Origin: a virus
Taxonomy: Duplodnaviria; Caudoviricetes
Reading direction: 5' to 3' (one strand)
Virus record (IMG/VR): IMGVR_UViG_3300032893_000082
Location: 1 to 47,795 of that record
DNA length: 47,795 nt
How positions within the stretch are numbered: position 1 is the stretch's first letter; the number at the start of each line of letters is the position of its first letter. The position numbers were made by a program, and so were the translations under genes. The notes under the pieces are model-generated. The model had not been told where the DNA came from. It saw only the letters and a list, made by a program, of their open reading frames with translations, and ran no database searches. Below, one piece after another: positions 1,968-47,495 of this stretch.

Positions 1968-3893
1968 TTGCCACCTAGATACATAGCGGTTCCTTTTCTT
2001 ACCGGCGGGACAGTTTTGCCTATAGGCACCCCCGTCCTTACAGCTACCGTTATCTCTAGTACCCAGATTAACCTAGCTTTAGCTTACTCTGGCCCTCCAG
2101 GAGCTATATCCTTTGCTTTTGAAGTGGCTCCCGCCCTTAACGGGCCTTTCGTCCCTCTCTCCTCCGGTAGTTCTTCCACGTATCCCTATACCGGACTATC
2201 CCAGGCTACCACCTATTACTTCAGAGGTAGAGTACAGGTCAACGACGGTAGATTTTCAGCTTACTCCAATACAGCTACTGCCACTACCCTCGCCGGAGTA
2301 CCTGCTCAACCCACAAACCTGGTTACAGGTTCGGTAACTACTACTACCATTAATCTTTCCTGGTCGGCGGCACTTAACGCTACTTCGTACAATATTTATC
2401 GGGATGGGTCGGTCGTGGGGTCCTCCAGCTCCACGACCTTTCAAGATTCTGGTCTGTCACCGGGTACTGTTCACCAGTACCAAGTCTCGGGGGTCAACTC
2501 TGCAGGGGAGGGTCCCCTGTCCAATACAGCGACAGGGACTACCTCGACCCCCACCAATACTGGGCACCAAATGGTGTTCACTCCGGGTGTCCACGCTATA
2601 GTGGGTAATATTGGAGGACAGTACAGCTCAGTAACTTCGGCTATGTCTGACTGGCAACCCCCCATGACCGCAGTAGCAACCAAGAACACCTCTAAGATAA
2701 TCAAAGGGTTCTGCGTAGTTCTCAACTGGCCTTTGTTGATGCAATCCACAGGTACCGTCACCAAAGGCGGACCGACAGCACTATCCCAAGGGCTTATATC
2801 GGTAGCTAATGGCGTTTCGTTCCTTACCCAGCTCTACAATTTCATTAAAACCCTTCCCAACGGTCCGTACACTCTTTCCATAGAGGTTAACTCCGTTGGA
2901 AATACGCTTAACTCCGCCGGAGCTGGATCTGCTACTGTCAACGCTCCTGCGTGGTGGATCGATAACACTACGTACGGTCCCGTCACCGCGGCTTCCGGGG
3001 CTACCGGACAGCATGGAGGATTATGGTACGGTAACACTACAGGTGCCTCCGGGCTATTTCTCCGTATCGATAACGCCAACGTCTTGAACGAAATGCGGTA
3101 CTGCTTGGTTAATCTGCAGAACCAGCTAGACGCTAGTGGTATCCATCTCGAGTCCATTAACCCGTTCCAAGAACTTAGTTTAGGCGGTGTTTCTGCCGTT
3201 CAGTGCGGCATCTCTAACGCTTCCTTCATAGCGGCTATGGGAGGTACGACCGGAATTCCTAACGGGTTCGCTGCCGATCTTCGCGGAGGTATCCCGAATA
3301 GCTTGCTACAAATAATGCCCACTTTCGCTAACGGTTCCGGCAATCCTGGAGGTCACGACGCTACCGCCCAACTAGTGGGGATTTTCTGCCGAAACTTCTG
3401 GAGTATTGCTCCGTTCGACGGCTCGAATCTTACTAATCCCTCCGACTACGCGGCTGCCGGCAAACAAGCTAAAACCAAGGCAGACTGGGGTCAACAAGCG
3501 TTCTGTGGCCAATCAGCTACCAACGGACCTATCGTTTACACCAACTATAAAGCTCTGGGTTATAATTCTCACCACCACACTGTGGCGGATGAGTTAGGTG
3601 GTTCGTTCATCCTAGGGTATGACGCCGTAGTGCCTCCCGCAGGAGAAGGTAACGGTAGATTACCCGACATTCTCTCTGGAGCTTCCTACACAGGAGCATC
3701 GCACTTCTTTGTGTGGATGCAGAACTTCACAGGTCCCAATTGCAACTGTTACGCTCCAAACGCAGGAGCCCCTGCCAACTACCCGTATCCTTTGAACGGT
3801 CCGACAGTACCGTACCAGAACATCGTAGACTCCTTGGCGGGGTTTAACGCCAACTCGTATCTCAATCTCAATTACCCGACGGCGTTCCCTTAA
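1968..3893 (+). CDS. Virion accessory protein: two FN3 domains plus a C-terminal putative glycoside-hydrolase-like domain
   Basis: FN3 motifs (GLSQATTYYFRGR; PAQPTNL...LSWSA...YNIYRDG...GLSPGTVHQYQVSGVN) followed by a ~440-aa alpha/beta domain. Confidence 0.7.
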   Translation: MPPRYIAVPFLTGGTVLPIGTPVLTATVISSTQINLALAYSGPPGAISFAFEVAPALNGPFVPLSSGSSSTYPYTGLSQATTYYFRGRVQVNDGRFSAYSNTATATTLAGVPAQPTNLVTGSVTTTTINLSWSAALNATSYNIYRDGSVVGSSSSTTFQDSGLSPGTVHQYQVSGVNSAGEGPLSNTATGTTSTPTNTGHQMVFTPGVHAIVGNIGGQYSSVTSAMSDWQPPMTAVATKNTSKIIKGFCVVLNWPLLMQSTGTVTKGGPTALSQGLISVANGVSFLTQLYNFIKTLPNGPYTLSIEVNSVGNTLNSAGAGSATVNAPAWWIDNTTYGPVTAASGATGQHGGLWYGNTTGASGLFLRIDNANVLNEMRYCLVNLQNQLDASGIHLESINPFQELSLGGVSAVQCGISNASFIAAMGGTTGIPNGFAADLRGGIPNSLLQIMPTFANGSGNPGGHDATAQLVGIFCRNFWSIAPFDGSNLTNPSDYAAAGKQAKTKADWGQQAFCGQSATNGPIVYTNYKALGYNSHHHTVADELGGSFILGYDAVVPPAGEGNGRLPDILSGASYTGASHFFVWMQNFTGPNCNCYAPNAGAPANYPYPLNGPTVPYQNIVDSLAGFNANSYLNLNYPTAFP

Positions 3894-3931
3894 GCGATGA
3901 AAACACCTCGCAATCGCGGTGAGCACCGCTC

Positions 3932-4666
3932 ATGACCTGGGCTTACCAATCAACGACAGCTACTCAAAGTGGATCTGGAACCGTGGCGGTTACTTATCCT
4001 GCCGGTATTCAAGTTGGCGACACAGTTCTGTTGATGTGCGCTTTGGGTTTCGGTGCCGGCAAGACCTTCACAGCATCAGATTTCACTCCCTTAGTTAGCA
4101 GGAACACTAACAACTCTTCGGCTATTCTCTATAGAGTAGTGGATGGCACAGAGGGAGCTACCTCCAACGTATCTAATAGTGGAGGAAACAATTGCTCCTA
4201 CGCTATGGCCAGGTTTACTGGAGGTCCTACTAACGCCGCTAATTTTGCTTCCTCTATAGTAGCTACTAATAGTCGAGGATCGTCTGGTAGTGCTGGGTTA
4301 AGTTGGCCGAATTTAACAATCGGCAACAACAACAATTGTCTAGTAGTTACACTAGGCACCAAACAAGCTACCCTCACAAGCTTTGATGTCCCTGCTCTGT
4401 GGACTGGGGAACTTACCCACTCTACGGGCTCTGACGGAGGCCGTTCCTTCGTCTGGGATTATCTAATACAGAACACTGCGGCAGATATAACGTCTGCTGG
4501 CTGGACGGTTGGGGGCGATTCTTCTGCTGCCAACCAGGCTATTATCGCGGCCATTTTACCGGCCGCGGCCCCACCTCCCTCTGGTGGTGGAGGTACGGGA
4601 AGCACAGCCTTCCCCCCACCGAAGCGTAAAACTTACGTCTTCTATGATCTCTACTACCCTAGATAG
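3932..4666 (+). CDS. Putative virion accessory/fibre protein
   Basis: T/S/G-rich; VTYPAGIQVGDTVLL motif; Pro/Gly linker and basic C-terminal tail. Confidence 0.7.
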   Translation: MTWAYQSTTATQSGSGTVAVTYPAGIQVGDTVLLMCALGFGAGKTFTASDFTPLVSRNTNNSSAILYRVVDGTEGATSNVSNSGGNNCSYAMARFTGGPTNAANFASSIVATNSRGSSGSAGLSWPNLTIGNNNNCLVVTLGTKQATLTSFDVPALWTGELTHSTGSDGGRSFVWDYLIQNTAADITSAGWTVGGDSSAANQAIIAAILPAAAPPPSGGGGTGSTAFPPPKRKTYVFYDLYYPR

Positions 4667-5136: not shown

Positions 5137-5477
5137 TGGCTAATCCGACTAAAGTTGTCTTTACTCTTCCAACTACGAACACAGACGGCAGTCCTCTTGC
5201 CGTATCGGACGTAACGGGTGTCAAACTCACCATTCTTGATAGCGCTGGCAACGTTGGCATTTCTACTGTTGTGGATACTGCCTCTCTGGGTATTGATAGT
5301 TCTGGCAACGGTTCTATTGCTCTCCCTAGTCTCCCTAGCGGTAGCTATAGTGTCGTTCTTTATACGGAATCTGTATCTCAGGGCCAGGCAGTAGAGAGCG
5401 CAGGGTCTACTCCGGTACCGTTCGTAATTGCTAATCCGTCAATTCCAAACCCTCCGACTGCCGTATCTGTCGTTTAA
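5136..5477 (+). CDS. Single Ig/FN3-like domain protein
   Basis: PTTNTDGSPL...GSYSVVLY...PNPPT motifs; GAGG SD. Confidence 0.7.
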   Translation: MANPTKVVFTLPTTNTDGSPLAVSDVTGVKLTILDSAGNVGISTVVDTASLGIDSSGNGSIALPSLPSGSYSVVLYTESVSQGQAVESAGSTPVPFVIANPSIPNPPTAVSVV

Positions 5478-22267: not shown

Positions 22268-25075
22268 ATGCCTAGTGCAGATGATTTCTTAGACGGAAAA
22301 GTTCTTCCTCAACGAGCTTCGGCGGACGAGTTTTTAGACTCGACTCCGCCTAAAACGGTTTCTTCTGGACCTTCTCCTTATCAATTGCCTCCGGTTAAAC
22401 CGGATCAAGAAGATAAGCCAGGAATGGCCCAGTGGATGAAGACAGGGAAGATGCCGTGGGATTACAGCCCGGCGGCTAAGAGTGCCGCCGCCCAAGGCGT
22501 GGATGTGACTAGTGGGGGACCTTACGGAATGAGGTCCCGGATGGATTTAGCACGTACCGCTGATGAGGAACTACGCGCTGTAGAGCAGTCCGGTTATAAG
22601 AGTCGATTCGGCCCAGATTCAGGGAAGATTGAATTCTTTAATCCCGATACTAAACGGTGGACTACGGTAAGGTCTATGAACCCCACCGGAGGCCAAGCTC
22701 CTACTCTTCCTGAGGTAGGCAAAACGGCCGTCCTGGCCGCTGCTGGAGCTATAGCCCCCGAGGGAGTTCTCCCTATGATCGGGACTCAAGCCGCCGCAGG
22801 GACCGCAGCGGAGGCAGGAGAGCGCCTTACTAGTGCTATGCTAGGCATAAAGAAGGGCCTAGGTACTGAAGACATAAAAAGCTCCCTACTTGAGGGGGCT
22901 AAACAAGGGGCGTGGGCTACGGCCGGAGCCGCTGTGTCCGGCGGTTTGCCGCTCCTTTATAAATACGCTCGTTATGGCCCAGACTTGTTCAAGACCCCGG
23001 TGTTCAACACGAAATACTGGCCAGACATGCAAAGAGACATGCTGGCGGCACAAAACGATCTCGAAGACTATTACGCTCTAGCCGGCAACAGGAACCTCAA
23101 ACTCGATACAGAGCAGCTCTCTGGTCACCCCGCTGCCCACGTGTCTCTTGAGGATTCTCGTAAGACGCTCAAGGAAGCGGCGGTCGATTACGCAATAAGG
23201 GGTCAAGATAATCTCTCCAATTTGCAACAGACGTTTGATGAAGTAACAAAAGGTATCATAGGACCAGAACCTGTGGATCCACTTTCTTCTGGCCAAGCCA
23301 TCTCCCAGTGGCAGCAAGAGCAGAAAGCGGCGTGGTTAGCCCAGCAACAACTTATGGAGAAGACCTCTACAGATGCGGCCAAACGGGCTATTAACGGTCT
23401 ACCGGAGATGTCCCAGGATCAGATTAATCAAAGGATTACAGAGCAACTTCAACTTGTTAACCAGCAAGAGAAAGCACAGGTAGACAAGGCTTGGGGGGAT
23501 GTAGCGGTACAATTTGGGAAACCTCCAAGTGTAGCGTATGCCAAGGATTCTACTTGGCTTTCGGAACCGCAGCAACAATCGATAGCGTACCCGGTTTCCT
23601 CGGAAGTAGAAAATAAACTCTTGAACCTTCTGAAGGAAGCAAAGGGAGCGTACGCGGTGGATTCTGATGCTGCCATTGCCAAGATCCGAGCCATCCCGGA
23701 TGGGATTCTGAAAACTTCTCCAGTAAAAGAACCGCTTCCGGGGGTTTCCCCTTCTTTGTCACCAGAAGATACACAGCTTCTAAAAGAATTTGGTCAAACT
23801 GTTCCATCAGAGACATCGGCTTCTCCAAAACACGTAGTTATAGGGAACACTCGGTACTCTATCGATACCAGTCCCAAGGACGCTTATTGGGTAGTTAACG
23901 CTATTAAAGGACTCAGATCTGGTGTCCGTCAGGATATGGCTCGCAGCAAAGGGTGGCTGCCTCCAGAAAGTCAAGATACAGCTCGAGTAGCCGAAACGCT
24001 TTCGACGGATCTGAAACAATTTCTTTCTGGACCTCATCCGGAAGCCCTGGCAGCTCTCGAAGCAGCGGAGCAACAAAGTAAGGAGTTTGCGTCACGGTGG
24101 CGAGATTCAGTCCTGTCAGAGGCGGCAAAAAAATATGACGGGTTTTCCCAGTACCCTCTCTCCGCCGCCGTCAACAACGCCATCTTTAAGAGCGGCGTGA
24201 ATGGGGATAAGACCGCGCTCCGCGAATTGGCGCAAATTTCGAAGGGAGACCCGAAGTTCGAGGACAGCATCCGTCAAAGTATCTTTGCTTGGTACAGGTC
24301 CCAGTACACCAAGAACGGTGTTCCCACCCCGGACCTCCACGAAAAATTCCTCAACGACATGGCCGGGCCTATTGAAGCGTTCTTCAGTCCGGCGGAACAA
24401 GCACAAATCGAGCATTTAGGTAACCTCGGCGATATAGTCGCCCGTAGAAGTGCCGATGTGGCGAAATTCGACAAATTGTGGAAGGCTAGTCCTTACGCCG
24501 ATATTCCTGCTAATTCGACCCTTTTGGCAAAGGCGGGTTTCTCGAACGCGAATAGCGTACGAGGTCTAGGTACTTTCTTGAGACAAAATAATCCAGCTTT
24601 GTTAAAAGAGCTGCAACGTGATACAGCACAACAATTGGCACAAAGAGTAAAGGGTCTGAGCGGAAGTCGATTTTCGGTACCCGCATTAGATAGAGCCCTC
24701 GATCCAGTGTTGGGGAAGAATTTTCAAGATATTATGCCTCCTGAGTACGTACAAGGTTTGCGGACTATATCGAACACAGCTCATCGGCTTACAGGGTCTC
24801 CAGGCATCTATAACCCTGCGGAAGAGAGTCTCGCGATTAAGACTATGCGTTTGTTCGTGGGCACTCTTTCCAAGGAAGGCAGAGCCTTTACCTTGTTTAA
24901 GGGGTTTCGTGAGAAACAAGCGGCTAGGCTTATTGATAGTGTAGTCTCCGATCCTGAGAAGATGAAGATGTTTATGGCTCTTAAAGATCAAAGTCCTAGG
25001 GTCGCCGCTAAGGCAGGATTTCTCACGTCCGTGGGGGCCTCGGGGTTAGATCAAGAGTCTACTTTATCCCCGTGA
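22268..25075 (+). CDS. Large internal virion protein
   Basis: 935 aa, helical; N-terminal duplicated SAD[DE]FLD motif; last large gene of the structural module. Confidence 0.7.
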   Translation: MPSADDFLDGKVLPQRASADEFLDSTPPKTVSSGPSPYQLPPVKPDQEDKPGMAQWMKTGKMPWDYSPAAKSAAAQGVDVTSGGPYGMRSRMDLARTADEELRAVEQSGYKSRFGPDSGKIEFFNPDTKRWTTVRSMNPTGGQAPTLPEVGKTAVLAAAGAIAPEGVLPMIGTQAAAGTAAEAGERLTSAMLGIKKGLGTEDIKSSLLEGAKQGAWATAGAAVSGGLPLLYKYARYGPDLFKTPVFNTKYWPDMQRDMLAAQNDLEDYYALAGNRNLKLDTEQLSGHPAAHVSLEDSRKTLKEAAVDYAIRGQDNLSNLQQTFDEVTKGIIGPEPVDPLSSGQAISQWQQEQKAAWLAQQQLMEKTSTDAAKRAINGLPEMSQDQINQRITEQLQLVNQQEKAQVDKAWGDVAVQFGKPPSVAYAKDSTWLSEPQQQSIAYPVSSEVENKLLNLLKEAKGAYAVDSDAAIAKIRAIPDGILKTSPVKEPLPGVSPSLSPEDTQLLKEFGQTVPSETSASPKHVVIGNTRYSIDTSPKDAYWVVNAIKGLRSGVRQDMARSKGWLPPESQDTARVAETLSTDLKQFLSGPHPEALAALEAAEQQSKEFASRWRDSVLSEAAKKYDGFSQYPLSAAVNNAIFKSGVNGDKTALRELAQISKGDPKFEDSIRQSIFAWYRSQYTKNGVPTPDLHEKFLNDMAGPIEAFFSPAEQAQIEHLGNLGDIVARRSADVAKFDKLWKASPYADIPANSTLLAKAGFSNANSVRGLGTFLRQNNPALLKELQRDTAQQLAQRVKGLSGSRFSVPALDRALDPVLGKNFQDIMPPEYVQGLRTISNTAHRLTGSPGIYNPAEESLAIKTMRLFVGTLSKEGRAFTLFKGFREKQAARLIDSVVSDPEKMKMFMALKDQSPRVAAKAGFLTSVGASGLDQESTLSP

Positions 25076-25149
25076 GAGATGGCCCAAGCCGTTAGCGCTA
25101 CCCCTAGCACTGCCAGCATTACAACAAAAACTAAAGCTAATACGTTCAT
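25051..25149 (-). CDS. 32-aa single-pass membrane peptide (not in ORF track)
   Basis: MNVLALVFVVMLAVLGVALTAWAISHGDKVDS; AGAGG SD; starts 1 nt after the upstream stop. Confidence 0.55.
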   Translation of the reverse strand: MNVLALVFVVMLAVLGVALTAWAISHGDKVDS

Positions 25150-25150
25150 T

Positions 25151-25528
25151 TCAATCCTCTACTGCGTTCGCTAGTTCTTCTTGATACCATTTACGCACCT
25201 TTTCGTGATCCAGGTGCCAAATCCACAATTGAATCCTGTTTCCTGATCTTGGATTTACCTCTATTGGGGTAGCATACAAACAAGCATCACCGAAGAGTTG
25301 GCGAATCCCATCTGCCATTTTTACTCCTCTCTTCTCCTCCCCATCCACTACATCAGAGAAAATAACGAAAGCAGCGGGCCGAGGATTGGCTTTGTGATAA
25401 AGCGCAGTAGCTACTGCGAATATATTCTTAGTTGCTGTCGTTTTTGGTAAGTGGTGCGCTTCTAGGACACCGCAAGAAACGAAAGACTTGTCGAATCTCA
25501 TCTGTTTCGAATTAATATACTCACCCAT
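25151..25528 (-). CDS. Uncharacterised protein, C/D/N-motif family paralogue A
   Basis: AGAGGTGA SD; KSFVSCG...FVIFSD...VNPRSGNRIQLWIW. Confidence 0.75.
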   Translation of the reverse strand: MGEYINSKQMRFDKSFVSCGVLEAHHLPKTTATKNIFAVATALYHKANPRPAAFVIFSDVVDGEEKRGVKMADGIRQLFGDACLYATPIEVNPRSGNRIQLWIWHLDHEKVRKWYQEELANAVED

Positions 25529-25542
25529 AAATCACCTCTTTT

Positions 25543-25905
25543 ATGTCTGAACTACTTGAACTACAATTTAAATTCGCGAAACTAGTGCCTAGGCTTATTG
25601 ATCAAGCCTACGCTCTAGGACTCTCCGTAACTCTCGGTGAAATCTATCGTACACCTCAACAAGCTCTATATAATGAGAGAGCAGGGGCAGGCATTGCACA
25701 CTCTCTGCATACCCTTCGCCTAGCAATAGACCTACAACTTTTCCGAAATGGTCAATATTTAACGAGCACAGAAGATTATTTGCCTCTGGGAGAGTTTTGG
25801 GAAGCGCTGGGGAAGCAGGAGGGACTACTTCTGTGTTGGGGTGGTCGGTTCGAGTCACGACCAGATGGTAACCATTTTTCGCTGAGTTATCAGGGCGTTC
25901 GGTAG
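25543..25905 (+). CDS. Endolysin, M15-family peptidase
   Basis: GEIYRTPQQ, SLHTLRLAIDL, WGGRF...DGNHFS Zn-peptidase motifs. Confidence 0.9.
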   Translation: MSELLELQFKFAKLVPRLIDQAYALGLSVTLGEIYRTPQQALYNERAGAGIAHSLHTLRLAIDLQLFRNGQYLTSTEDYLPLGEFWEALGKQEGLLLCWGGRFESRPDGNHFSLSYQGVR

Positions 25906-25996
25906 ATATTTCGAGATTTTGATATTGGTGCCCCGGTAAGTCTAGTCTGTAAATAGAGGGGCCTGACTTAAACCAAAGTTCCGCTTCAATCTTCAT
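25595..25996 (-). CDS. Hypothetical protein overlapping the endolysin antisense
   Basis: ATG overlaps upstream TGA (ATGA); GGAG upstream; fills the gap in the - operon. Confidence 0.55.
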   Translation of the reverse strand: MKIEAELWFKSGPSIYRLDLPGHQYQNLEISTERPDNSAKNGYHLVVTRTDHPNTEVVPPASPALPKTLPEANNLLCSLNIDHFGKVVGLLLGEGYAESVQCLPLLSHYIELVEVYDRFHRELRRVLERRLDQ

Positions 25997-26400
25997 GATG
26001 TAAGTTCTCCGATGTTGCCATCTCCGGAGCTTGCTTCGGCTGCTGTGTAGACTCCGGTTTCGGCATTAAGCACGACGGGATTTGGATCTGCTGTTGCTGC
26101 CTCAATAGGAGGCACAGAGATTTGAGCGATAAACGATTCCGCTTTCTTCCGTTCTTCATTTTTCTTTTCTTCATCATCCAACCGCTCTATAGCTGCTTTC
26201 ACTAAAGCCCTAGCATCCGATCTGCTAAGAGACTGCCAAGGATCAACAAGAGTTTGAGCAGTAAATCCGTCCTTTGCTCCCAGTAACTCGAACTGGACGT
26301 AATACTTAATGTCCACACGCACATCATCGCGTTGCGCCTCGTGCACGAGGTGTTTCAGAAGTCGTTCCAGGTCTCGACGATCTACTAAAGTAATTCCCAT
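25993..26400 (-). CDS. Hypothetical protein
   Basis: GAGGA SD; starts 1 nt after the upstream stop. Confidence 0.7.
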   Translation of the reverse strand: MGITLVDRRDLERLLKHLVHEAQRDDVRVDIKYYVQFELLGAKDGFTAQTLVDPWQSLSRSDARALVKAAIERLDDEEKKNEERKKAESFIAQISVPPIEAATADPNPVVLNAETGVYTAAEASSGDGNIGELTS

Positions 26401-26401
26401 A

Positions 26402-26686
26402 CTATTCCTCTGAGTTTCTTTTATTGAAGGCTCGAGTTAATTTAACTGCGTCTAAAGAACACCTCCCAGGGACTTTTTTCATCTGGCGTTCAGCAACCCA
26501 AGCTACTCTATTAACCACTCTACCGTTCTTGGTTGGATATACTGCATACTCAGAACGTGAGTGCTTGTCGGCTCCTCCATACAGATCTGAGTATGTCCCT
26601 TCAATGATTACCAGATCTCCCTTCTTGACATCCTCACCCCAATCTTCAACCATTATTGCCCAATCATAGGGCCGGAATTTATCCAT
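26402..26686 (-). CDS. Hypothetical protein (possibly SH3-like fold)
   Basis: GGAG SD; KKGDLVIIEG...AWVAERQM. Confidence 0.65.
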   Translation of the reverse strand: MDKFRPYDWAIMVEDWGEDVKKGDLVIIEGTYSDLYGGADKHSRSEYAVYPTKNGRVVNRVAWVAERQMKKVPGRCSLDAVKLTRAFNKRNSEE

Positions 26687-27143
26687 GGGCGTACTCCAAG
26701 ATATAGGTCAAGCAGTAGGCACGGCAGCGGGGGCTGCTACCGGTTCGTGGCTCACCCCCGTGCTGAATATTATCAATAAGGTTATACCTGACCCTCAGGC
26801 AAAGGTGCAAGCCCAAATACAGCTCCTCCAACTTCAGCAATCTGGGGAGCTTGCTCAAGAGGCTTCGGCACTTCAGGTAGCGCTGGCGAATAGCCAGGTA
26901 AATCTCGCTGAAGCCCAGTCTGCCTCAAGTTTTCGAGCCGGGTGGCGACCTGCTGCAGGGTGGCTAAGTGTTGCCGGATTAGGCTACCAGTATCTCGGAC
27001 AGCCTCTGTTATCCTGGATAGCTGCTCTAGGGCATTTTCCATCTCCCCCTGTTCTTGATGGATCGACTTTGTTAGCCCTTTTAACTGGGCTTCTAGGGCT
27101 TGGTACTCATCGGACAATTGAGAAACTGAACGGGTTGGCCTAA
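26685..27143 (+). CDS. Holin, 3TM (GTA-type) family
   Basis: INKVIPDP...VNLAEAQS...AGWRPAAGW...LLGLGTHRTIEK signature. Confidence 0.88.
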   Translation: MGVLQDIGQAVGTAAGAATGSWLTPVLNIINKVIPDPQAKVQAQIQLLQLQQSGELAQEASALQVALANSQVNLAEAQSASSFRAGWRPAAGWLSVAGLGYQYLGQPLLSWIAALGHFPSPPVLDGSTLLALLTGLLGLGTHRTIEKLNGLA

Positions 27144-27276
27144 TCCACGGCGTTTTTTGTACTTTTTCCATAGCGAGTTGCACCTCCTGTTGATAATTAG
27201 CAGCAAGTTCCTGATTAACAAAAGCGTTCTGTAAATTTACGTTAAGCTGATTTAGATATTCATTAATATTAGGCAT
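26782..27276 (-). CDS. Coiled-coil protein overlapping the holin antisense
   Basis: TAAGGA SD; first 44 codons lie outside the holin; heptad pattern continues through the overlap. Confidence 0.6.
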   Translation of the reverse strand: MPNINEYLNQLNVNLQNAFVNQELAANYQQEVQLAMEKVQKTPWIRPTRSVSQLSDEYQALEAQLKGLTKSIHQEQGEMENALEQLSRITEAVRDTGSLIRQHLATLQQVATRLENLRQTGLQRDLPGYSPALPEVPKPLEQAPQIAEVGGAVFGLAPLPEGQV

Positions 27277-27295
27277 TCCGTGTCCTTAGACGATT

Positions 27296-27326
27296 AGGGC
27301 CGCTTATTGCGGCCCTTTTCTTTTTT
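27296..27326 (+). terminator. Intrinsic terminator ending the late/lysis transcript
   Basis: AGGGCCGC-TTATT-GCGGCCCT followed by TTTCTTTTTT. Confidence 0.8.
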
Positions 27327-27516
27327 GTAGTATTTCTTTTGCTCTAGCGGACATTACAGTTCTAGCGGGGTCTGGTAGGAACTCGGTAGCCCACTTCTTG
27401 GCTACCGCCGCTCCTTGGTCCCTGTACAACCTTATGTATCGTCTAGCCCACTTGTCTACTAATTTCGGATGGAGTTCGACTAGCTCCCCGCCCTTACGCT
27501 GGGCCGAGGCCACCAC
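27304..27516 (-). CDS. Hypothetical basic protein
   Basis: GGAG upstream; overlaps the end of the exonuclease gene. Confidence 0.6.
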   Translation of the reverse strand: MVASAQRKGGELVELHPKLVDKWARRYIRLYRDQGAAVAKKWATEFLPDPARTVMSARAKEILQKRKGPQ

Positions 27517-34939: not shown

Positions 34940-35117
34940 GATCGCTTTCTACCTCTTCCCATATCTCAGGTTGGTACTCTCGTTCGAAGTACTGCTCGAA
35001 ATTTAGTTCTTCTTCTGCTGCGATATCAGAGATATCGTCGGATTCCGACAGAACGTCTTGCTGCAATTCTAGTTCGCGGAGTAGCTCCAGACTTACGTGC
35101 GGCGGTTTTTTGTCCAT
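34893..35117 (-). CDS. Small highly acidic protein
   Basis: TAAGG SD; 25 of 74 residues are D/E. Confidence 0.6.
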   Translation of the reverse strand: MDKKPPHVSLELLRELELQQDVLSESDDISDIAAEEELNFEQYFEREYQPEIWEEVESDHDSSSDNPAESEDQS

Positions 35118-35448
35118 AGTCCCTTACCTTATTTATTTTTGTTTTTCTTTTCTTTTCCGTGAACCAATGGTACAGGGTAACGTGGTGTCCCCCAGACTTG
35201 GAGTTCACACCAAGCTTGAATTTATCACACCTGTACCCAGAACGCAAGATCAACTTGTATAGGCGCTCACCGTGCCCATACTCATCAGCATCAGAAAACT
35301 CGATGATCAGCGGCAGTTCGTCCCCTCCCTGTACCTTAGCTCGCGCTAGAATATCTTCCAGGTCAGTTTTGCTGAACCCTGTGTTATGCAGACCTCCTAC
35401 GCAGTACACAGCACAGCAGTGCTGACTCTTATAAACTTGCATTTTCAC
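35026..35448 (-). CDS. Uncharacterised protein, C/D/N-motif family paralogue B
   Basis: AGGAG upstream; KSQHCCA...IIEFSD...VNSKSGGHHVTLYHW. Confidence 0.7.
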   Translation of the reverse strand: MKMQVYKSQHCCAVYCVGGLHNTGFSKTDLEDILARAKVQGGDELPLIIEFSDADEYGHGERLYKLILRSGYRCDKFKLGVNSKSGGHHVTLYHWFTEKKRKTKINKVRDYGQKTAARKSGATPRTRIAARRSVGIRRYL

Positions 35449-36199: not shown

Positions 36200-36805
36200 T
36201 TAGGCGATTCCTAGGGTCGTAAGTTCGTGTTTAAGGATTGGTGAATGGGCATAGTTTTTCGCGATTGCGGAAAGGGACACTTTCATCCCCGGAGTAACGG
36301 AAGCCTTGTCGAAACAGATATCCTTAGCTATAGAGGGCAACACCAAAGTCCATATTCGACTAGGCTTGGAGGGTCCATAGTACCGATTCGGTAGAATCGG
36401 ACTCTTGAGTACCACTACCCCGAACTTGGGCTCCGTCTCGAACACCTCTATCAGTCCTTTCCAGTGATTGTACCAAGTAAAGGACTTGTTCATGTGAATT
36501 GCATCACAGTAAATAAGTACGCCAGGAGGGTACACGCCGCTATCCAAGGGAAAGAAGGGGCACCCGTCCTTAAGGGCCTTGAACGTGGCCCTCTGATTAA
36601 GATCTTCCAAATAATTGAAGATGATCGCGTCTCTGATCTTAGGATCTTCCAGTTCCTTAGCGATTACCCCCGACCCAACATCTACGGGGTCGTCCCCGTT
36701 GTTCACGTGAAGCTGCAACCGCCCTACGGTTTTGTTGCCGCAATTGTACTCTCCATAGAGAGCACTAAGCCATACGTTGTATTTGCCTACTTTATGTTTA
36801 TTCAC
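36200..36805 (-). CDS. Uncharacterised protein, C/D/N-motif family paralogue D
   Basis: EYNCG...VLIYCD...KGL...PNRYYG...RIWTL; coupled to the ATP-grasp gene. Confidence 0.75.
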   Translation of the reverse strand: MNKHKVGKYNVWLSALYGEYNCGNKTVGRLQLHVNNGDDPVDVGSGVIAKELEDPKIRDAIIFNYLEDLNQRATFKALKDGCPFFPLDSGVYPPGVLIYCDAIHMNKSFTWYNHWKGLIEVFETEPKFGVVVLKSPILPNRYYGPSKPSRIWTLVLPSIAKDICFDKASVTPGMKVSLSAIAKNYAHSPILKHELTTLGIA

Positions 36806-37593
36806 AATTTATTCCTTGTAATCAGTTCGCCCAGATGTGTAATATAAAACGCCAAACATTGGCCTTCCAGGCCCGGTGCTGTGTTTATCTCCCCCACCAG
36901 CATCTTCTTGTCGTTAAACATTATATCCACCGCTCCATACGCCAACCCGCAAGCGTGCATAGCTTTCGCTGCGAGCGCAACAGCCGCCAAGTTTGTGCTA
37001 ACGTTACGCTTGAAGATCCACCCCTTATCGTAGGTTCGGATATAAGTCTCCGGCGTGCCCTCCAAATTGAACTCCTCCCACCGACCCTCGAGAACCCGGC
37101 CCTTCTCAAGATAAAGGGAGCGGTATTTTCCATCAGCTCCCTGGATGCAGTGCACACGGCACTCAGTCTTTTTTGGAAAGTACTTAGTGTAGAGATGGAT
37201 GTCTTCCCTGGTGATCTGTCCCCCTTTCTTGAAGAGTTCGAGACCTTGTGCAGAGTGGGCGTGTAGATTGAAGTGCCCGACCACCGAAGACGTAGTGAGC
37301 CATTCCAAAGCTTCTCCACGCTTAAGTGTGTATTCAAGGGTCGGAATCTCTTTCTCATGCAACCTCTTTAAACAATTAAGTTTATTGGCTGCCACAGCAA
37401 CAGCGGAACACGGATTAAGTATCTTAGGTCCGGCTCCTAGAACCTTGGTACACCCCCAATTGACAATTAATCCCACCTTGTTCTTTGCTTTGTCCATTTC
37501 CCACTCGGCAGGTGTACGTCGAATGAGATTCAAGTTCTGACACAGCCGTCGAGGCGTTCCGCCTCTCCACGGCGAAAGAAGTACTGTCCTCAT
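36802..37593 (-). CDS. ATP-grasp ligase (RimK-like)
   Basis: IVNWG, AANKL, ECRVH, YGAVDI, EINTAPGL. Confidence 0.9.
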   Translation of the reverse strand: MRTVLLSPWRGGTPRRLCQNLNLIRRTPAEWEMDKAKNKVGLIVNWGCTKVLGAGPKILNPCSAVAVAANKLNCLKRLHEKEIPTLEYTLKRGEALEWLTTSSVVGHFNLHAHSAQGLELFKKGGQITREDIHLYTKYFPKKTECRVHCIQGADGKYRSLYLEKGRVLEGRWEEFNLEGTPETYIRTYDKGWIFKRNVSTNLAAVALAAKAMHACGLAYGAVDIMFNDKKMLVGEINTAPGLEGQCLAFYITHLGELITRNKL

Positions 37594-39236
37594 GTTCCTA
37601 CCTTTTTCATGACTATTGGGTCATGAACACAGCATTCGCATATCATCTGATACTCTGCATCGAGTGGGTTATGATCCTCGGGGGGTAGCGGGAACTCCCA
37701 CCACTCCACTCGTCCGATGTCTTCGGCTGTGATCATTCCTTTACACCCGACACACCCTTTTGACGCCACCTCGCGCCACTCACGATACGTAATCTTTTGT
37801 CCTGCGGGGCCTGGGACTAGATCAGTAAGCGCCCTTTCTACCCGCAGATTATCCCCTCCTCGTCGTTCGGCTCCAGATCCAACGGGTGTCCCGTTGTTGG
37901 GTCCCACCCCCACGGAACTCCCTCCTCCTTCGGTCTTTCCCACACTGCTGGTCGTGCTAGACGAATGGGTAACAAGGGGAAGGGACCCCCTATCGAGAGT
38001 TTTACAACTCTCGCAAGCACAGACGTATGAGTGGCCGTTGGGCCGCTTCAAATACTTGTCTTTTTCCGCCAATCGTCGTTTCTGGTCTTGAATTTCCTTG
38101 GCAGCATCCGCTTCTTCTAATCTCACTTCGTAGAAAGCGTACTTCTGCCCGGTATCTGGATCAATCTCATCCCGTGTAAGGTTAATAATTCTGCACGGCA
38201 AAGAGTGAGCAATTAAGTGAGTCTTCTCGTTCCAATCCTTCCAGTGAAGCCCCACTATTCGAACCTTTGAGCCCTTTTCCATAGAGCGTGTGCCATAAGC
38301 GAACCCGTAGGCATGCTGCTCGAGAGTCTCATTCTCCCCGGTTCCGATAGGCTTGTAGAGATTGACTGCGCTCTTAGCGTCTCCTGGTACGCTAACCCAG
38401 ATACAGTCTCCTTTTCCAGGGAACTGCTTAGTGTAGTCTTTCCACCGTTGTTGACTGTTTCCGTAAAGCCCGCCGTTCTCGTTTTGATAACTTGCGGCGG
38501 GCAGGAATTTTTTTTCTTCGTACTTCGTCTTCATGGCTTTAAGAACTTTCTTAGTCAGATCCCACTGATACAAAGTTAAGGTGTCCAATTGCCAAAACTC
38601 GTTCACGTGGGGTATGTTATTCCGACGTAGGAGGCTTACCAGCATGTCCATTTCGGAAGCGAAGTAAAGTATCGTCTGCTCCTTGTTAAGGGCGTAATAA
38701 AGCTCTCGTTCGACATTACGAGCCATGTTAAGCATCTTGGTGCGAGTGTCGTACCAGATAAGAACGTACGCTCCTTCAATAGATTCCAGAGTAGCCAACG
38801 CCCCCTTTTCGAGTAGTGCGTGGGCAGCGTGCGCCGAATCCACTGGGTGAGTAAATCCCGGTGGAGTAAGTGTCAAATAATTCCTGATGTGTCCATTATG
38901 GATCATCAGTACAGAATCTCCAGCAGCATTGGTAAATCTGAACGGGTGGGCGTTTTTGGTAGATACCGTACCAATGGTTGCTGACCTGGTGTGCCCGAGT
39001 ACGGCACGTGAGGAGAAAAGGTTCTTTCCTACCCAATCCCATTCATCGGAGCACACAAAATTGGGCGCCGGAATATGGGACTTGGCAAGATCCGTATCGA
39101 ATTCCTTGTGGACAAGACCGACTCCTGTACCCCCCATGCCACGCAACGCGGACATGTAGAGTCCTTGGACCATGAAATTGTCGATCTTTGTAAAATAAGC
39201 ATCGTCTGCTCTAAATGCTCCAATTAACCCGCACAT
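37590..39236 (-). CDS. Class II glutamine amidotransferase with C-terminal extension
   Basis: N-terminal MCGL (Cys nucleophile), LRG, GHTRSAT, NAHPF, HNG, VDS, FASE. Confidence 0.92.
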   Translation of the reverse strand: MCGLIGAFRADDAYFTKIDNFMVQGLYMSALRGMGGTGVGLVHKEFDTDLAKSHIPAPNFVCSDEWDWVGKNLFSSRAVLGHTRSATIGTVSTKNAHPFRFTNAAGDSVLMIHNGHIRNYLTLTPPGFTHPVDSAHAAHALLEKGALATLESIEGAYVLIWYDTRTKMLNMARNVERELYYALNKEQTILYFASEMDMLVSLLRRNNIPHVNEFWQLDTLTLYQWDLTKKVLKAMKTKYEEKKFLPAASYQNENGGLYGNSQQRWKDYTKQFPGKGDCIWVSVPGDAKSAVNLYKPIGTGENETLEQHAYGFAYGTRSMEKGSKVRIVGLHWKDWNEKTHLIAHSLPCRIINLTRDEIDPDTGQKYAFYEVRLEEADAAKEIQDQKRRLAEKDKYLKRPNGHSYVCACESCKTLDRGSLPLVTHSSSTTSSVGKTEGGGSSVGVGPNNGTPVGSGAERRGGDNLRVERALTDLVPGPAGQKITYREWREVASKGCVGCKGMITAEDIGRVEWWEFPLPPEDHNPLDAEYQMICECCVHDPIVMKKVGT

Positions 39237-39252
39237 TTTTATTTGTTTCCTC

Positions 39253-40209
39253 TTACGCGGCTACATATTGGTAAAGGGTTTCAAGTCCGTTCCAATAGTC
39301 CGCTTCTGAATTGCGAGACATGCGGACAGCATCTCTGTAGTGAGACTTGAAAACTTCGACTAAAAACTGTTCTGGTTTTTTATGGTTGCAGTAATCAATG
39401 ACCTTATCTGGAGTCATGGGGTGCTCTTGGCACCACTGCTTGATCCTCATAATTAGGTTGATCCACGTGATTATAGCATCACGTTGCATGGTTACACGGC
39501 CGTGCCTAAATTCTAGCGTGCCGAAATCTCCTAAAGAAAAACAGTTCAATCCAGCGTACTTATTAGCTTGTTTACCTATCTTAAACCCAGCCACTGCGCT
39601 CGAACTTTCTGGTACGTGGTATTTACGTATGCAATCCTTAAAAGCTTCGAAGTGCTGTGGGTGCTTGTACCACGGGATACAGTAATTGGATAGATGGCGA
39701 CCTCCTCCTACGTATTGATAAAGAAATGGCTCAACTACGCAATAAACAGCTCCGAACTGGTGTACATCGTCGGGGAACGTCGCATCTCGCATGTCTAAGT
39801 GAACGTGCAAAGAAGTACGATAAGATCCTTCAAAACCCAGGACACGAGCACAATCATCCATAGCGTCAATAGCTTTGAGTAATTTGGAGCCGCTATACGG
39901 AGCCTTAAAATTGAACTCCAATCCCTCCCCCCGCAGACTGTGGTCTACGTGGTGATTATAGTATTTACACACCTCCGTAATTACCGCCATGTGCGTAGTC
40001 CCTTGAAGTAGCGGGTTTGGTGCAACAGCCCCTGGGGGCAGTTCCGGGTTAACCGCCAAATTCAAATACGGATTGTCGTTTTTAGGGAATCGCTTCGTCT
40101 TTTCCCATTCGTACTCCAGTCCTATTGCGTTACGCGGAAGACAAAAGTCAGGTACGGGCTGCTCTTGAACTTGATCGTCAGCCGCATTTATTAGATTGCG
40201 TACTTTCAT
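39253..40209 (-). CDS. Putative amidoligase (Amidoligase_2-like)
   Basis: IGLEYE, DHSLR, GLE, LHVHLD, NYC, KYAGLN, GTLEFR. Confidence 0.88.
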   Translation of the reverse strand: MKVRNLINAADDQVQEQPVPDFCLPRNAIGLEYEWEKTKRFPKNDNPYLNLAVNPELPPGAVAPNPLLQGTTHMAVITEVCKYYNHHVDHSLRGEGLEFNFKAPYSGSKLLKAIDAMDDCARVLGFEGSYRTSLHVHLDMRDATFPDDVHQFGAVYCVVEPFLYQYVGGGRHLSNYCIPWYKHPQHFEAFKDCIRKYHVPESSSAVAGFKIGKQANKYAGLNCFSLGDFGTLEFRHGRVTMQRDAIITWINLIMRIKQWCQEHPMTPDKVIDYCNHKKPEQFLVEVFKSHYRDAVRMSRNSEADYWNGLETLYQYVAA

Positions 40210-41111
40210 ATTGCGTCATTAAACCCCATATTATGCAATTCGTAGTGCGGCATAAGATTTTGTGCCCCAGGGTAGCCCCCTCGATACGTAAGTATTGTGC
40301 CGTGGTGCGGACTCCCCGGCCAAACATACAGCACGGAATACCAACGAGAGTTCAACCAATACCCAGGATGGTACCCCTTTATGTAATGAGGATTGGCTGC
40401 CTGCGGAATGATGGCAGAGGCGTCTTTAGCGTCTTTTTTCTCCTTTTGCTCTGAGATTAGTACATTTTCCGGCAGTACTCCAAGTTTTTGAAGTTTGTAC
40501 TTGAACGGTGCTGCCCAAGGGTACAGCTCCACAACGCTCTCCACAACGCCCGGTGCCGTAACAAATTTCCCAATCGGTTCACTATGAAAATAGAGTAGAT
40601 TCGCCACACGATCTATTAAGAAATTCTCTCTCGTCCAGCACGCCAGTGGTCCTTCTCGCCACACGTCTACGAGAGCAGGCTTTACGTGGCGCATCCCATA
40701 CAATTCGCAAAAGGCTTGGCTTGCCGTCTCTTGTACTGTCCTGGCTGCTGGAGGAACATCTCCAAAGAATTTGACATCGTTAAATCTCCAAGGAAACGAT
40801 TTCCTCAAGTTTTTCTGCAACTTGTGTTTCCACAAAGCCGCACCGTGCTTATAATTGAACATGATGGGCTGCATGAGAATGATATCTAACGAAGTCCACC
40901 ATTCCTTGAGAGAAATGGTCTTATCTTTGAATTCTTTCTCACGAGTCAAGTATTGGCCAGATATTTTGTCCCCATCGCCCAGCCCTGATACCACGAACAA
41001 TCGTCGTTTTGTCGGGCTTATCCGCCACACCATTGCGGTGCTAGCGAAATAGTGATTGAAATCTTGAGGAGTAACATCCTTGTAGGCTTCCCCACTAATT
41101 GTTGTTATCAT
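40206..41111 (-). CDS. Hypothetical protein inside the ligase operon
   Basis: 301 aa; ATGA-coupled to the amidoligase. Confidence 0.75.
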   Translation of the reverse strand: MITTISGEAYKDVTPQDFNHYFASTAMVWRISPTKRRLFVVSGLGDGDKISGQYLTREKEFKDKTISLKEWWTSLDIILMQPIMFNYKHGAALWKHKLQKNLRKSFPWRFNDVKFFGDVPPAARTVQETASQAFCELYGMRHVKPALVDVWREGPLACWTRENFLIDRVANLLYFHSEPIGKFVTAPGVVESVVELYPWAAPFKYKLQKLGVLPENVLISEQKEKKDAKDASAIIPQAANPHYIKGYHPGYWLNSRWYSVLYVWPGSPHHGTILTYRGGYPGAQNLMPHYELHNMGFNDAI

Positions 41112-41117
41112 GGTTGC

Positions 41118-42074
41118 TTACTTCCCTAAGGAAAGGTTTCCCGCTTTAATGGCTGCTCTGTTAGCACTCAACTGCTTGCGTTCACTCACCCAACGAGCAA
41201 GAGCATCTGTACACACACTGTAGTGATTCCGATAATTATAAAATGACTCAGGCCCAGCCAGAGCAGTTATTTCAGAAGCAACCTGATCGATGTTAGAGGT
41301 CTTCAAGAACATTTTTATCGCGTCGTTCACACGAGCGCCATGTTGGTCATAATCGAAACAAGTAGCTAAACGATCCATAGTCCAATCGAAAGATGAGATG
41401 ATACCTTTATGATACTCCTTTGCGTCCGGAGAAAGTTTACTAATGCGAGCGGCATTACACCAAGAGTTATCAGGGGATCGGTGTTCAATTCCGTACTCGG
41501 TTTCCCTATAAAGTCCAGGGTGGCCGTAAAACTTCCAGCGGCTCTTATCTGCATAGTATCTACTCCAAGGTAGTACAAAGAGTAGATCTATAAATTTCAC
41601 CAAATTGATTTTCTCCAACCCTTCGGGCCATGGGTTGATACCTACGTGCACGTGCCCCCCAGCAAAGCGCATGTTCTGGAATTTGCTGATCGAGGGAGCT
41701 AACCTAAGTCCGTACGCAAACATGTCAGGGGAACATCCGATATTCATAGCTTCGCTGTATTTACTCAATTCTTCTTGAGGATAGACAGCAGAACTATTCG
41801 GAAGGAATTCGTATTCTTGAAATTTATTCAAGAATACGAGTTGTAAATTCAACAACTTCTTCAAGGTGTCTTTAAGAGATGAGGAAGGAGTAACGTTGAA
41901 CTCAACTGTAACCCCATCTTCAAGAAACCCTCCGTCTGGACTCAAAAACATGGGGGCTCTTTTTTCGCCCCCAAATTTGTGACACGCCACCACCGCCTGG
42001 TGTGTCTTTTTATCGGCTACTATAAATTCAGGATCAGCACCGATAGTTATCTTGTATCTCTTATTATTAGACAT
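41118..42074 (-). CDS. COOH-NH2 ligase type 2 (phiEco32-like)
   Basis: TIGADPEF, EDGVTVEFN, GCSPD, RFAGGHVHVG, YG-x-x-G-x-YR, YGIEHRSPDN. Confidence 0.9.
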   Translation of the reverse strand: MSNNKRYKITIGADPEFIVADKKTHQAVVACHKFGGEKRAPMFLSPDGGFLEDGVTVEFNVTPSSSLKDTLKKLLNLQLVFLNKFQEYEFLPNSSAVYPQEELSKYSEAMNIGCSPDMFAYGLRLAPSISKFQNMRFAGGHVHVGINPWPEGLEKINLVKFIDLLFVLPWSRYYADKSRWKFYGHPGLYRETEYGIEHRSPDNSWCNAARISKLSPDAKEYHKGIISSFDWTMDRLATCFDYDQHGARVNDAIKMFLKTSNIDQVASEITALAGPESFYNYRNHYSVCTDALARWVSERKQLSANRAAIKAGNLSLGK

Positions 42075-46945: not shown

Positions 46946-47495
46946 GAACGGCAGAGCGTTACGCTCGACCCCAACAGGCTGGCTGCTGGTACTCTTATCA
47001 GACAACGGCCGTACGTGATAGTTCAATCTTCCCCGCTGTTTTGGATGTCCCAGATATCTATATATCTAGATCTATACGCATCTGGGATATCTAGGTTATG
47101 TAAACTGGATCACTAGGCTAGCACGAAGGCACAACTCACACGCTACTTGAGCGCTTCAGCGAAAATCCCGCGAAGATCATATCGCATAATAGATCTGATA
47201 TATCGCTTGAAAGCGCCTCGCGAAGCCACCGGGGGCCCTCCTAAGAAATTACTAGATGGAGACGTAGCAGATTTTCGAACGGGGGGAGAAAAATAGGAAG
47301 GTGGGTAAATATAGGGTCCTATAAGCCGACGGAGGAGGTACCCTATGGTAGGGTAGAGGGTCTAGCCTCCTATCCCCTGTAATCCCCTTACGGAGGCTCC
47401 TAGAGCCCAAGGGAGGTACGACCGAGAGTAAGGGGATCCGATCCCATCTACCTAGGTATTTACAGACGATATTCAGGATTATTGATAAATATCTC

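Follow-up and report, generated by a model that had tools for sequence, protein, structure and literature searches.

Evidence that holin and endolysin genes share their DNA with antisense protein genes in an interleaved block of uncultured phages

The window analysed here is a stretch of 47,795 nt, the virus record IMGVR_UViG_3300032893_000082 (Duplodnaviria; Caudoviricetes) from position 1 to its end. The phage group consists of uncultured bacterial viruses. The last large late-strand gene of the window (22268..25075, plus strand) encodes a 935-aa product, which has no family match in Pfam or PHROGs and is probably an internal virion protein. Homologues are found at the same place in three related genomes, L001, L084 and L168. 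Its 3′ end overlaps the convergent gene m7, the last of seven minus-strand ORFs (m1 to m7), and two plus-strand lysis genes lie inside the block that these ORFs form. All nine reading frames sit at the coordinates given in an earlier note on this DNA, which had placed the endolysin and the holin within the block about 780 bp apart; the distance is 779 nt. The seven minus-strand ORFs all pair with the anti-Shine-Dalgarno sequence (−5.7 to −10.1 kcal/mol). Their tiling had been described as almost gapless, but two real gaps of 95 nt and 66 nt are present, the other spacings being 27, 1, −4 and 1 nt. Each of these two gaps is filled by the 5′ end of a lysis gene.

The endolysin (25543..25905, plus strand) belongs to Peptidase_M15_4 (PF13539; 31.7 bits against a gathering cut-off of 25), and its counterpart in L084 scores 31.4 bits. 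The holin (26685..27143, plus strand) belongs to GTA_holin_3TM (PF11351; 80.9 bits against a cut-off of 24.8), with 70.4 bits for L084. PHROGs concurs for both genes of the window. The Pfam scores above cut-off, together with invariant residues, place the sense frames under selection. A 25-nt repeat at 24913 and 25578 was put down to chance, since RLID is encoded by either copy and the corresponding bases are missing from the L001 endolysin.

On the minus strand, m7 (25051..25149) would encode a hydrophobic peptide of 32 aa and is a plausible gene with a Shine-Dalgarno (SD) pairing of −5.8; tblastn in the relatives gave no match. m6 (25151..25528, 125 aa, SD −10.1) is not retained at this position in the relatives, and an unrelated, AT-rich phage (L081) encodes a full-length homologue with 57% identity on its main strand, which marks m6 as a real gene on comparative grounds. 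Paralogy of m6 with the ORF 35026-35448 was suspected and dropped, as no alignment was obtained. m4 (25993..26400, 135 aa) is kept in all four genomes and is coupled to m5 by ATGA. m3 (26402..26686, 94 aa) is not conserved and had no match in relatives or cultured phages; the ATG codons of m3 and the holin overlap back to back as CATG, the SD site of m3 being within the holin gene. m1 (27304..27516, 70 aa) shares 23 nt with the exonuclease gene upstream and is likewise kept in four of four genomes, without a match among cultured phages. The conservation of m5, m2, m4 and m1, and the homologue of m6 elsewhere, indicate that the minus-strand genes are real.

The two remaining ORFs lie antisense to the lysis genes. 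m5 (25595..25996, minus strand, 133 aa) shares 311 of the 363 nt of the endolysin gene, and m2 (26782..27276, minus strand, 164 aa) shares 362 of the 459 nt of the holin gene; an antisense protein gene covers 79-97% of each lysis gene. The earlier note listed both ORFs without remarking on the overlap. The protein collection already contains m2 and m5 as called genes.

Long frames opposite real genes may be open by chance. Here, the frame concerned is stop-free in 3/3 holins and 3/3 endolysins of the clade, and in none of 56 control holins (mean 5.0 stops) or 23 control endolysins (mean 4.7 stops), that is, in six of six clade genes against 0/79 controls. The controls were de-duplicated; the 23 endolysins, 56-61% identical to the query, were counted without regard to kinship. 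Synonymous nulls put the chance of an open frame at 0.0003-0.07 per gene. The upper end of this range, reached by some overlaps in a single genome, speaks for mere shadow ORFs, as do the other antisense frames of control holins, which are open in 13/56 and 6/56. Against such an origin stand the stop counts, the SD sites, the MP starts, a heptad pattern and the selection tests described below, and we regard it as largely refuted and very improbable. For both overlaps, then, chance does not account for the long open frame antisense to a real gene.

Four-fold sites are near saturation in control genes (73/220 and 142/467), the value for the overlaps being 105/241. The antisense frames show more conservative substitutions than the lysis proteins would by themselves impose (z 4.1 and 4.2; 4.5 and 4.0 in a second analysis), and the same test on five control genes gave z from −1.9 to +1.2. 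An excess of antisense identity is seen to some degree in control genes as well (z up to 3.8), so that only the tests on non-identical substitutions, stops and heptads discriminate. In the holin gene, the wobble bases spell a coiled-coil heptad: the power at period 3.5 is 161-190 in the clade, and 37 control holins are without such a heptad (mean 7.0, maximum 25.6). The frames could also be open only for ribosome cover against Rho-dependent termination, with idle proteins. That m2 and m5 have no known family, fold or homologue outside the overlaps, and that the N-terminal head of m2 is highly variable, would agree with this. Avoidance of stops, however, cannot account for the heptad, the N-terminus of m5 is conserved, and the substitutions remain conservative even under a stop-free null, which for the endolysin comprised only 270 valid samples. 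Hence, ribosome cover is an improbable explanation. Taken together, the data show selection at the protein level on either frame of each overlap.

m2 has a variable N-terminal head, a predicted coiled-coil helix (residues 51-124) and a Pro/Ala-rich tail. Its structure is predicted as a single long helix, so that a long coiled coil is the modelled form. Searches with single sequences of m2 and m5 found nothing but the queries, and relatives emerged only with profiles. The m2 profile gave 43 matches, of which 42 were judged members; these are diverged proteins with a median identity of 33% in the overlapped part, and 35/42 start with MP, outside the holin. Among 31 members tested, 46-63 of 56-63 positions are holin-compatible, against about 20 by chance. 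The m5 profile gave five matches, in which the N-terminus outside the endolysin is conserved and 59-62 of 62 positions are endolysin-compatible. In m5, the first 30 residues lie outside the endolysin and carry a conserved MK-x-ELW motif. Both genes have start signals of their own in three genomes (SD −5.7 to −9.2). Dual coding was examined at the DNA level in these three genomes; the further family members are protein-only, and the search can return only open frames. Neither protein has a family or atlas match, an m2 homologue had no match among cultured phages, and m5 gave no fold match with a structure model of pLDDT 52.6. The lysis genes appear as the older frames of both overlaps because their families are widespread, and m5 and m2 most likely arose by overprinting on them.

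The earlier note had proposed synteny in related phages as a check, and the interleaved layout is indeed kept in 4/4 genomes. In the window, L001 and L084, the co-oriented endolysin and holin are split by the opposite-strand genes m4 and m3. In L168, a GH108 endolysin replaces the M15 type and the GTA holin is absent, and interleaving is still present. The gene in the m2 slot of L168 starts with MP, is coiled-coil-like and may be an m2 homologue, with weak matches to the m2 profile (E 0.14 and 0.02). Stops abound in the frame opposite, where no clear trace of a holin was found. No relative was found among GTDB genomes.

A one-way intrinsic terminator of the lysis strand lies at 27296..27326 (plus strand). 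It had been described as sitting just past the holin; the terminator is there, but its stem (27296-27316) begins 152 nt past the holin stop, beyond the start of m2. In three genomes, the terminator is found just past the m2 ribosome-binding site and not at the holin stop, the counterparts (L001 5623-5641; L084 about 5266-5303) having different sequences. All four genomes have a late-strand terminator after the last lysis gene that was recognised. Such a position means that the lysis RNA would run antisense across m5 to m2. The layout includes no strong terminator between endolysin and holin, and on the early strand the block is likewise free of strong terminators. A consensus scan of the window gave 8 sites, against 5.5 ± 2.2 in shuffles. 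From the conserved interleaving, the real minus-strand genes and the terminator pattern, overlapping antisense transcription in the block is therefore very likely.

The start of the lysis RNA is less clear-cut. The earlier note had the late transcript read through from 25075, to be silenced until minus-strand transcription stops. This single transcript to 27326 is a variant of our best explanation that differs in the RNA start point. For the window, L001 and L084, no strong late-strand terminator was detected from the last large late gene to the holin, as the earlier note had stated for the DNA after 25075, and in 4/4 genomes the overlap of the last late gene with a convergent one leaves no room for a terminator there. 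Weak candidates, however, precede the endolysin in the window (25403..25418, plus strand, within chance) and in L001 (3893-3916). Moreover, the endolysin has no SD site in 3/3 M15 genomes and is the sole start without anti-SD pairing among 23 plus-strand starts tested; such a start deep inside a long RNA would translate poorly. Finally, AATATAC stands 12-29 nt upstream of the endolysin ATG in the window, L084 and L168 (null P 0.0005-0.0015) and is absent near the L001 endolysin start. This motif, chosen after the fact, is a candidate local endolysin promoter in three of four genomes; the element in the window reads CGAA-N17-TAATATAC (25492..25520, plus strand). A separate local promoter is what the earlier note had named as speaking against its model. 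Thus, the antisense overlap that it proposed very likely stands, read-through from 25075 is a minority possibility, and a local promoter is slightly favoured as the start of the lysis RNA.

No AATATAC motif was found before the GTA holins, and sigma-70 scans of the window gave nothing above shuffles. A sigma factor or RNA polymerase was not recognised among 63 ORFs in one set and 16 in another. A phiEco32-type sigma promoter was rejected, as the motif differs, does not precede other late genes and comes with no sigma match.

A local promoter also suits a rival reading, in which the overlapping genes are real, the lysis genes are expressed from a late promoter of their own and the antisense arrangement has no timing role. 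The SD-less endolysin starts fit it, protein selection on m2 and m5 would suffice to keep the layout, and the lysozyme gene e of T4 is described as timed by local late promoters (PMC3014915). Packing of this kind does not readily explain why interleaving is still present in L168, where the endolysin is replaced and the GTA holin missing, or why the terminator lies beyond the m2 ribosome-binding site in three genomes. We consider it unlikely, at perhaps one chance in a few.

Our preferred reading, to which we give a probability of about 60%, is that the lysis genes share most of their DNA with selected antisense frames, and that the lysis RNA opposes the tail of the replication operon, the two strands damping each other. 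One late-strand RNA would start at or before the endolysin, end at 27326 and span m5, m4, m3 and m2, including every ribosome-binding site of these four genes; the replication-strand RNA, for its part, would span the start codons of endolysin and holin. As long as the replication strand is strongly transcribed, lysis expression would be restrained by decay of the RNA duplex or by colliding polymerases; once late transcription prevails, expression of m5 to m2 would cease. Such mutual damping would help to keep lysis late, and we infer a lysis timer from this arrangement. Middle-strand transcription may persist late in infection, which would weaken the timer. Dual coding of both lysis genes, which the earlier note overlooked, is a second reason for the layout. 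The m2 and m5 proteins might in addition brake holin and endolysin or the timing of lysis while the RNAs exclude each other, locking gene and antagonist into the same base pairs across the clade; this proposal is speculative and we hold it to be rather doubtful.

Lysis genes in overlapping reading frames are known from lambda Rz/Rz1, phiX174 E in D, and MS2 L. These are embedded on the same strand, with the lysis gene as the newcomer; here, in contrast, the two frames lie on opposite strands and the lysis gene is the older one. In lambda, the paQ RNA is antisense to a regulator and does not code for protein. For T4 gene e, the cited account places late promoters immediately upstream and a hairpin within the same-strand early RNA (PMC3014915). 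Both resemble the timer proposed for our block as RNA-level devices that hold a lysis or late function off early.

Closest in layout are noncontiguous operons or excludons, such as menEC-MW1733-ytkD of Staphylococcus aureus and four in phage 80alpha, in which overlapping RNAs repress each other via collision and RNase III (PMC11034616, PMC7154746). They share opposite-strand genes inside an operon, the lysis genes of our block being putatively co-transcribed. In those accounts, the antisense gene faces an internal untranslated region, whereas here both strands code and the genes are lysis genes. Long antisense overlapping genes are described for Pseudomonas aeruginosa (olg1/olg2; PMC8850804), with gene 10/olg1 of phage Fc02 as a phage precedent (PMC9936078). 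As described there, these are likewise taxonomically restricted antisense frames on an older gene that are depleted in stops and under purifying selection. Our case differs in that two overlaps lie in one lysis module, are known from sequence alone and persist across proteins with the median identity given above for m2. Antisense overlaps are put at 6.6% of annotated viral overlaps (PMC8903798).

The phiEco32/SU10-type podoviruses, according to the cited descriptions, use AATGTA in middle and late promoters (PMC4281155, PMC12276001), one base from the AATATA found here. They share convergent late and early/middle arms, an SU10-type portal and an amidoligase/COOH-NH2 ligase cluster. They differ in that no sigma factor was recognised here, in size (48 kb here against 77 kb) and, for SU10, in a terminator that closes the middle arm (PMC4281155, PMC12276001). 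The best matches to cultured phages are about 30% identical.

A literature search, with most subscription papers outside it, yielded no report of an antisense dual-coded holin or endolysin. In prokaryotes and their viruses, long antisense overlaps with selected proteins on both strands are rare, and they are a matter of dispute. The present phages have two of them, adjoining each other on well-known holin and endolysin families across a diverged clade. Relatives of these families without the overlap provide natural controls, and the heptad that the holin gene carries in its wobble bases is an uncommonly clean signature, so that the birth of genes through antisense overprinting becomes directly measurable. 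The case is also a warning, as gene callers discard one gene of each overlapping pair. If the RNAs exclude each other, the block would represent a new way of timing lysis.

The seven minus-strand ORFs (m7 to m1, 25051 to 27516), the endolysin (25543-25905, +; Peptidase_M15_4) and the holin (26685-27143, +; GTA_holin_3TM) that the earlier note placed in the window were recovered by ORF check and family matches. Its near-gapless minus-strand tiling holds in general, apart from two gaps (66 and 95 nt) that the lysis genes' 5' ends occupy. Most of the endolysin (311 of 363 nt) is overlapped by the ORF m5 (25595..25996, -), and most of the holin (362 of 459 nt) by m2 (26782..27276, -). The two overlaps are in one and the same register: the second position of each antisense codon falls on the wobble base of the lysis gene.

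Three further distinct syntenic phages were found, represented by the contigs L001 (with L082, L083, L085, L165 and L166), L084 (with L170) and L168 (with L167 and L169). The same endolysin is present in L001 (65%) and L084 (70%), as is the same holin (75% and 53%, respectively). Open antisense frames cover 344/369 nt of the endolysin in both, and 362/459 nt (L001) and 455/468 nt (L084) of the holin. At the corresponding place, L168 has neither an M15 endolysin nor a GTA holin; the slot holds a late-strand GH108 lysozyme amid early-strand genes, its start back to back with one of these. The ORFs m1 and m4 are kept in all four genomes; m3, m6 and m7 are not conserved among them, and an unrelated phage has a full-length m6 homologue (57%) on its main strand. 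Five of seven lysis-gene starts stand back to back with an ATG of the other strand, as a CATG overlap or CATATG (window 26684-26687; L001 5000-5003 and 4014-4019; L084 4000-4003; L168 3100-3103), and the other two starts are 12-14 nt from such an ATG.

Five tests (stops, substitutions, heptad, families and SD sites) support m2 and m5 as genes, and we put the probability that the endolysin and holin DNA is dual coding at about 0.9. For the first test, control sets of 79 holin and 78 endolysin loci were de-duplicated to 56 and 23. The m2-type antisense frame was open in none of these 56 other GTA-type holins and the m5-type frame in none of the 23 other M15 endolysins, with about five stops each, while the other two antisense frames of the controls were open in up to 13/56. 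Under synonymous nulls, an open antisense frame had a probability of 0.0003 to 0.07 per gene; four-fold sites between the genomes are near saturation. In the second test, BLOSUM scores at non-identical antisense residues exceeded the level forced by the lysis proteins, with z = 4.1 and 4.2 (null from genome codon usage) or 4.5 and 4.0 (null from each gene's own codons), against -1.9 to +1.2 for five control genes. Raw antisense identity was not relied on, since control genes, too, had elevated values (z up to 3.8).

For aliphatic residues in the holin antisense frame, the three genomes gave a period-3.5 power of 161, 181 and 190, whereas in 37 control holins it averaged 7.0 and peaked at 25.6; the AlphaFold2 model of m2 is a single confident helix at residues 51-124. 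Searched against 50%-identity representatives, a two-sequence m2 profile retrieved 43 proteins, with the three known ones among them. Excluding P0031, judged unrelated by eye, leaves 42, of which 35 share an MP start located outside the holin. Among 31 aligned members, with 12 left out and at a median pairwise identity of 33%, 46-63 of 56-63 invariant positions are compatible with the opposite holin, as opposed to about 20 by chance. The m5 profile retrieved five proteins, three known and two new. An MK-x-ELW start that lies beyond the endolysin is common to four, and in all five 59-62 of 62 positions fit the opposite endolysin. These searches return open frames only, the DNA of the dual-coding region coming from three genomes. 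The m5 homologue P0052 carries an insertion of about 50 residues within the overlap; hence, the opposite endolysin would carry an in-frame insertion, too. Finally, SD sites precede m2 and m5 in the window, L001 and L084.

Holins and endolysins of these families occur widely with no overlap, and m2 and m5 were found solely opposite them; most likely, therefore, the lysis frames came first. In L168, the m2 slot is occupied by a weakly matching gene that may be a holin-free descendant. A 64-aa late-strand ORF of L168 (1780-1974, -) with one hydrophobic stretch, AATATAC before it and a weak hairpin after it, but no Pfam match, is a candidate replacement holin in this phage without a GTA holin. In L001, the m5 stop is coupled to a 63-aa lipoprotein-like ORF (3854-4045, -) with a basic start, a hydrophobic stretch and GGC; this ORF spans the remainder of the endolysin 5' end, so that this endolysin may be overlapped over its whole length. 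A scan of 63 window ORFs recognised no spanin (whole plus strand). Both the window (m7) and L084 have small hydrophobic ORFs next to the endolysin on the minus strand.

The terminator proposed just past the holin is present, its stem starting 152 nt after the gene. The window, L001 and L084 all have a late-strand hairpin with U-run downstream of the holin, differing in sequence and each time just past the m2 start; in L168, one lies about 250 nt after the lysozyme. The L084 and L168 sites were found by a folding scan and missed by the consensus scan. Neither scan gave a strong early-strand terminator across the block. The earlier note had late transcription reading through from 25075 with no terminator before the holin; no strong one was indeed found between the last large late gene and the holin, but the window and L001 each have weak candidates upstream of the endolysin. 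The M15 endolysin lacks anti-SD pairing in all three genomes, the sole such start among 23 plus-strand window starts hand-picked from the ORF list and compared with an assumed anti-SD motif. In the window, L084 and L168, the endolysin ATG is preceded at 12-29 nt by AATATAC and, another 17-18 nt upstream, by CGAA (P 0.0005 to 0.0015 under nulls, for an element chosen after the fact); the coding contexts are unrelated to one another. The element is absent near the L001 endolysin start and was not found before GTA holins or other late genes. The L084 spacing would give a leaderless RNA. Together, the element, the SD-less endolysin and the weak upstream terminators slightly favour a local promoter over read-through from the virion operon.

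The 47.8-kb contig has ends sharing a 126-nt repeat. Gene and family annotation places packaging and virion genes on the plus strand up to 25075, and replication and amidoligase-cluster genes on the minus strand. The cluster (36802-42074, -; ATP-grasp, glutamine amidotransferase, amidoligase, COOH-NH2 ligase) resembles phiEco32-type phages and is conserved in L001's genome. Best cultured-phage matches of two marker proteins are about 30% identical, and a search of GTDB genomes found no relatives. At the contig junction (47520-47700 and 1-60), a low-complexity array of about 170 nt, almost pure A/T with TATAAATA-like units, is followed by a promoter-like sequence containing TTGACA; the matching place in L001's genome has a near-consensus sigma-70 promoter, but no array. 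A 110-nt stretch outside listed genes (47331-47437; L177 1741-1847 in L001's genome) is 84.5% identical, more than most coding DNA, and is possibly an origin, packaging site or small RNA. Within the small ORF 1177-1539, 96 nt (1259-1354; L178 18933-19028) are 90.6% identical between the window and L001's genome, exceeding what 42-47% protein identity accounts for; this is possibly another dual-use stretch.

Rz/Rz1, phiX174 E, MS2 L and lambda paQ are comparison systems. The closest overlapping-gene cases are P. aeruginosa olg1/olg2 (PMC8850804) and gene 10/olg1 of phage Fc02 (PMC9936078), and the closest timing analogue is T4 gene e (PMC3014915). The layout works like the noncontiguous operons of S. 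aureus and phage 80alpha (PMC11034616, PMC7154746), of which it would be a candidate member. The literature searched, incomplete in coverage, yielded no account of a holin or endolysin gene that also codes on its antisense strand.

At the sequence level, the analysis establishes that the overlaps are dual coding under selection and that both the interleaving and the terminator position are conserved. Whether from a local promoter or by read-through, lysis transcription would yield an RNA complementary to m5, m4, m3 and m2 along with their ribosome-binding sites; the early-strand RNA, for its part, would span both lysis starts. Endolysin and holin would probably be co-transcribed; two opposite RNAs present at overlapping times would damp each other and could affect lysis timing. 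We consider this full picture, mutual damping included, somewhat probable; m2 and m5 may possibly act as antagonists. The two antisense overlaps in this phage lysis module are real, conserved and apparently unreported, and the arrangement could plausibly serve as a lysis timer.
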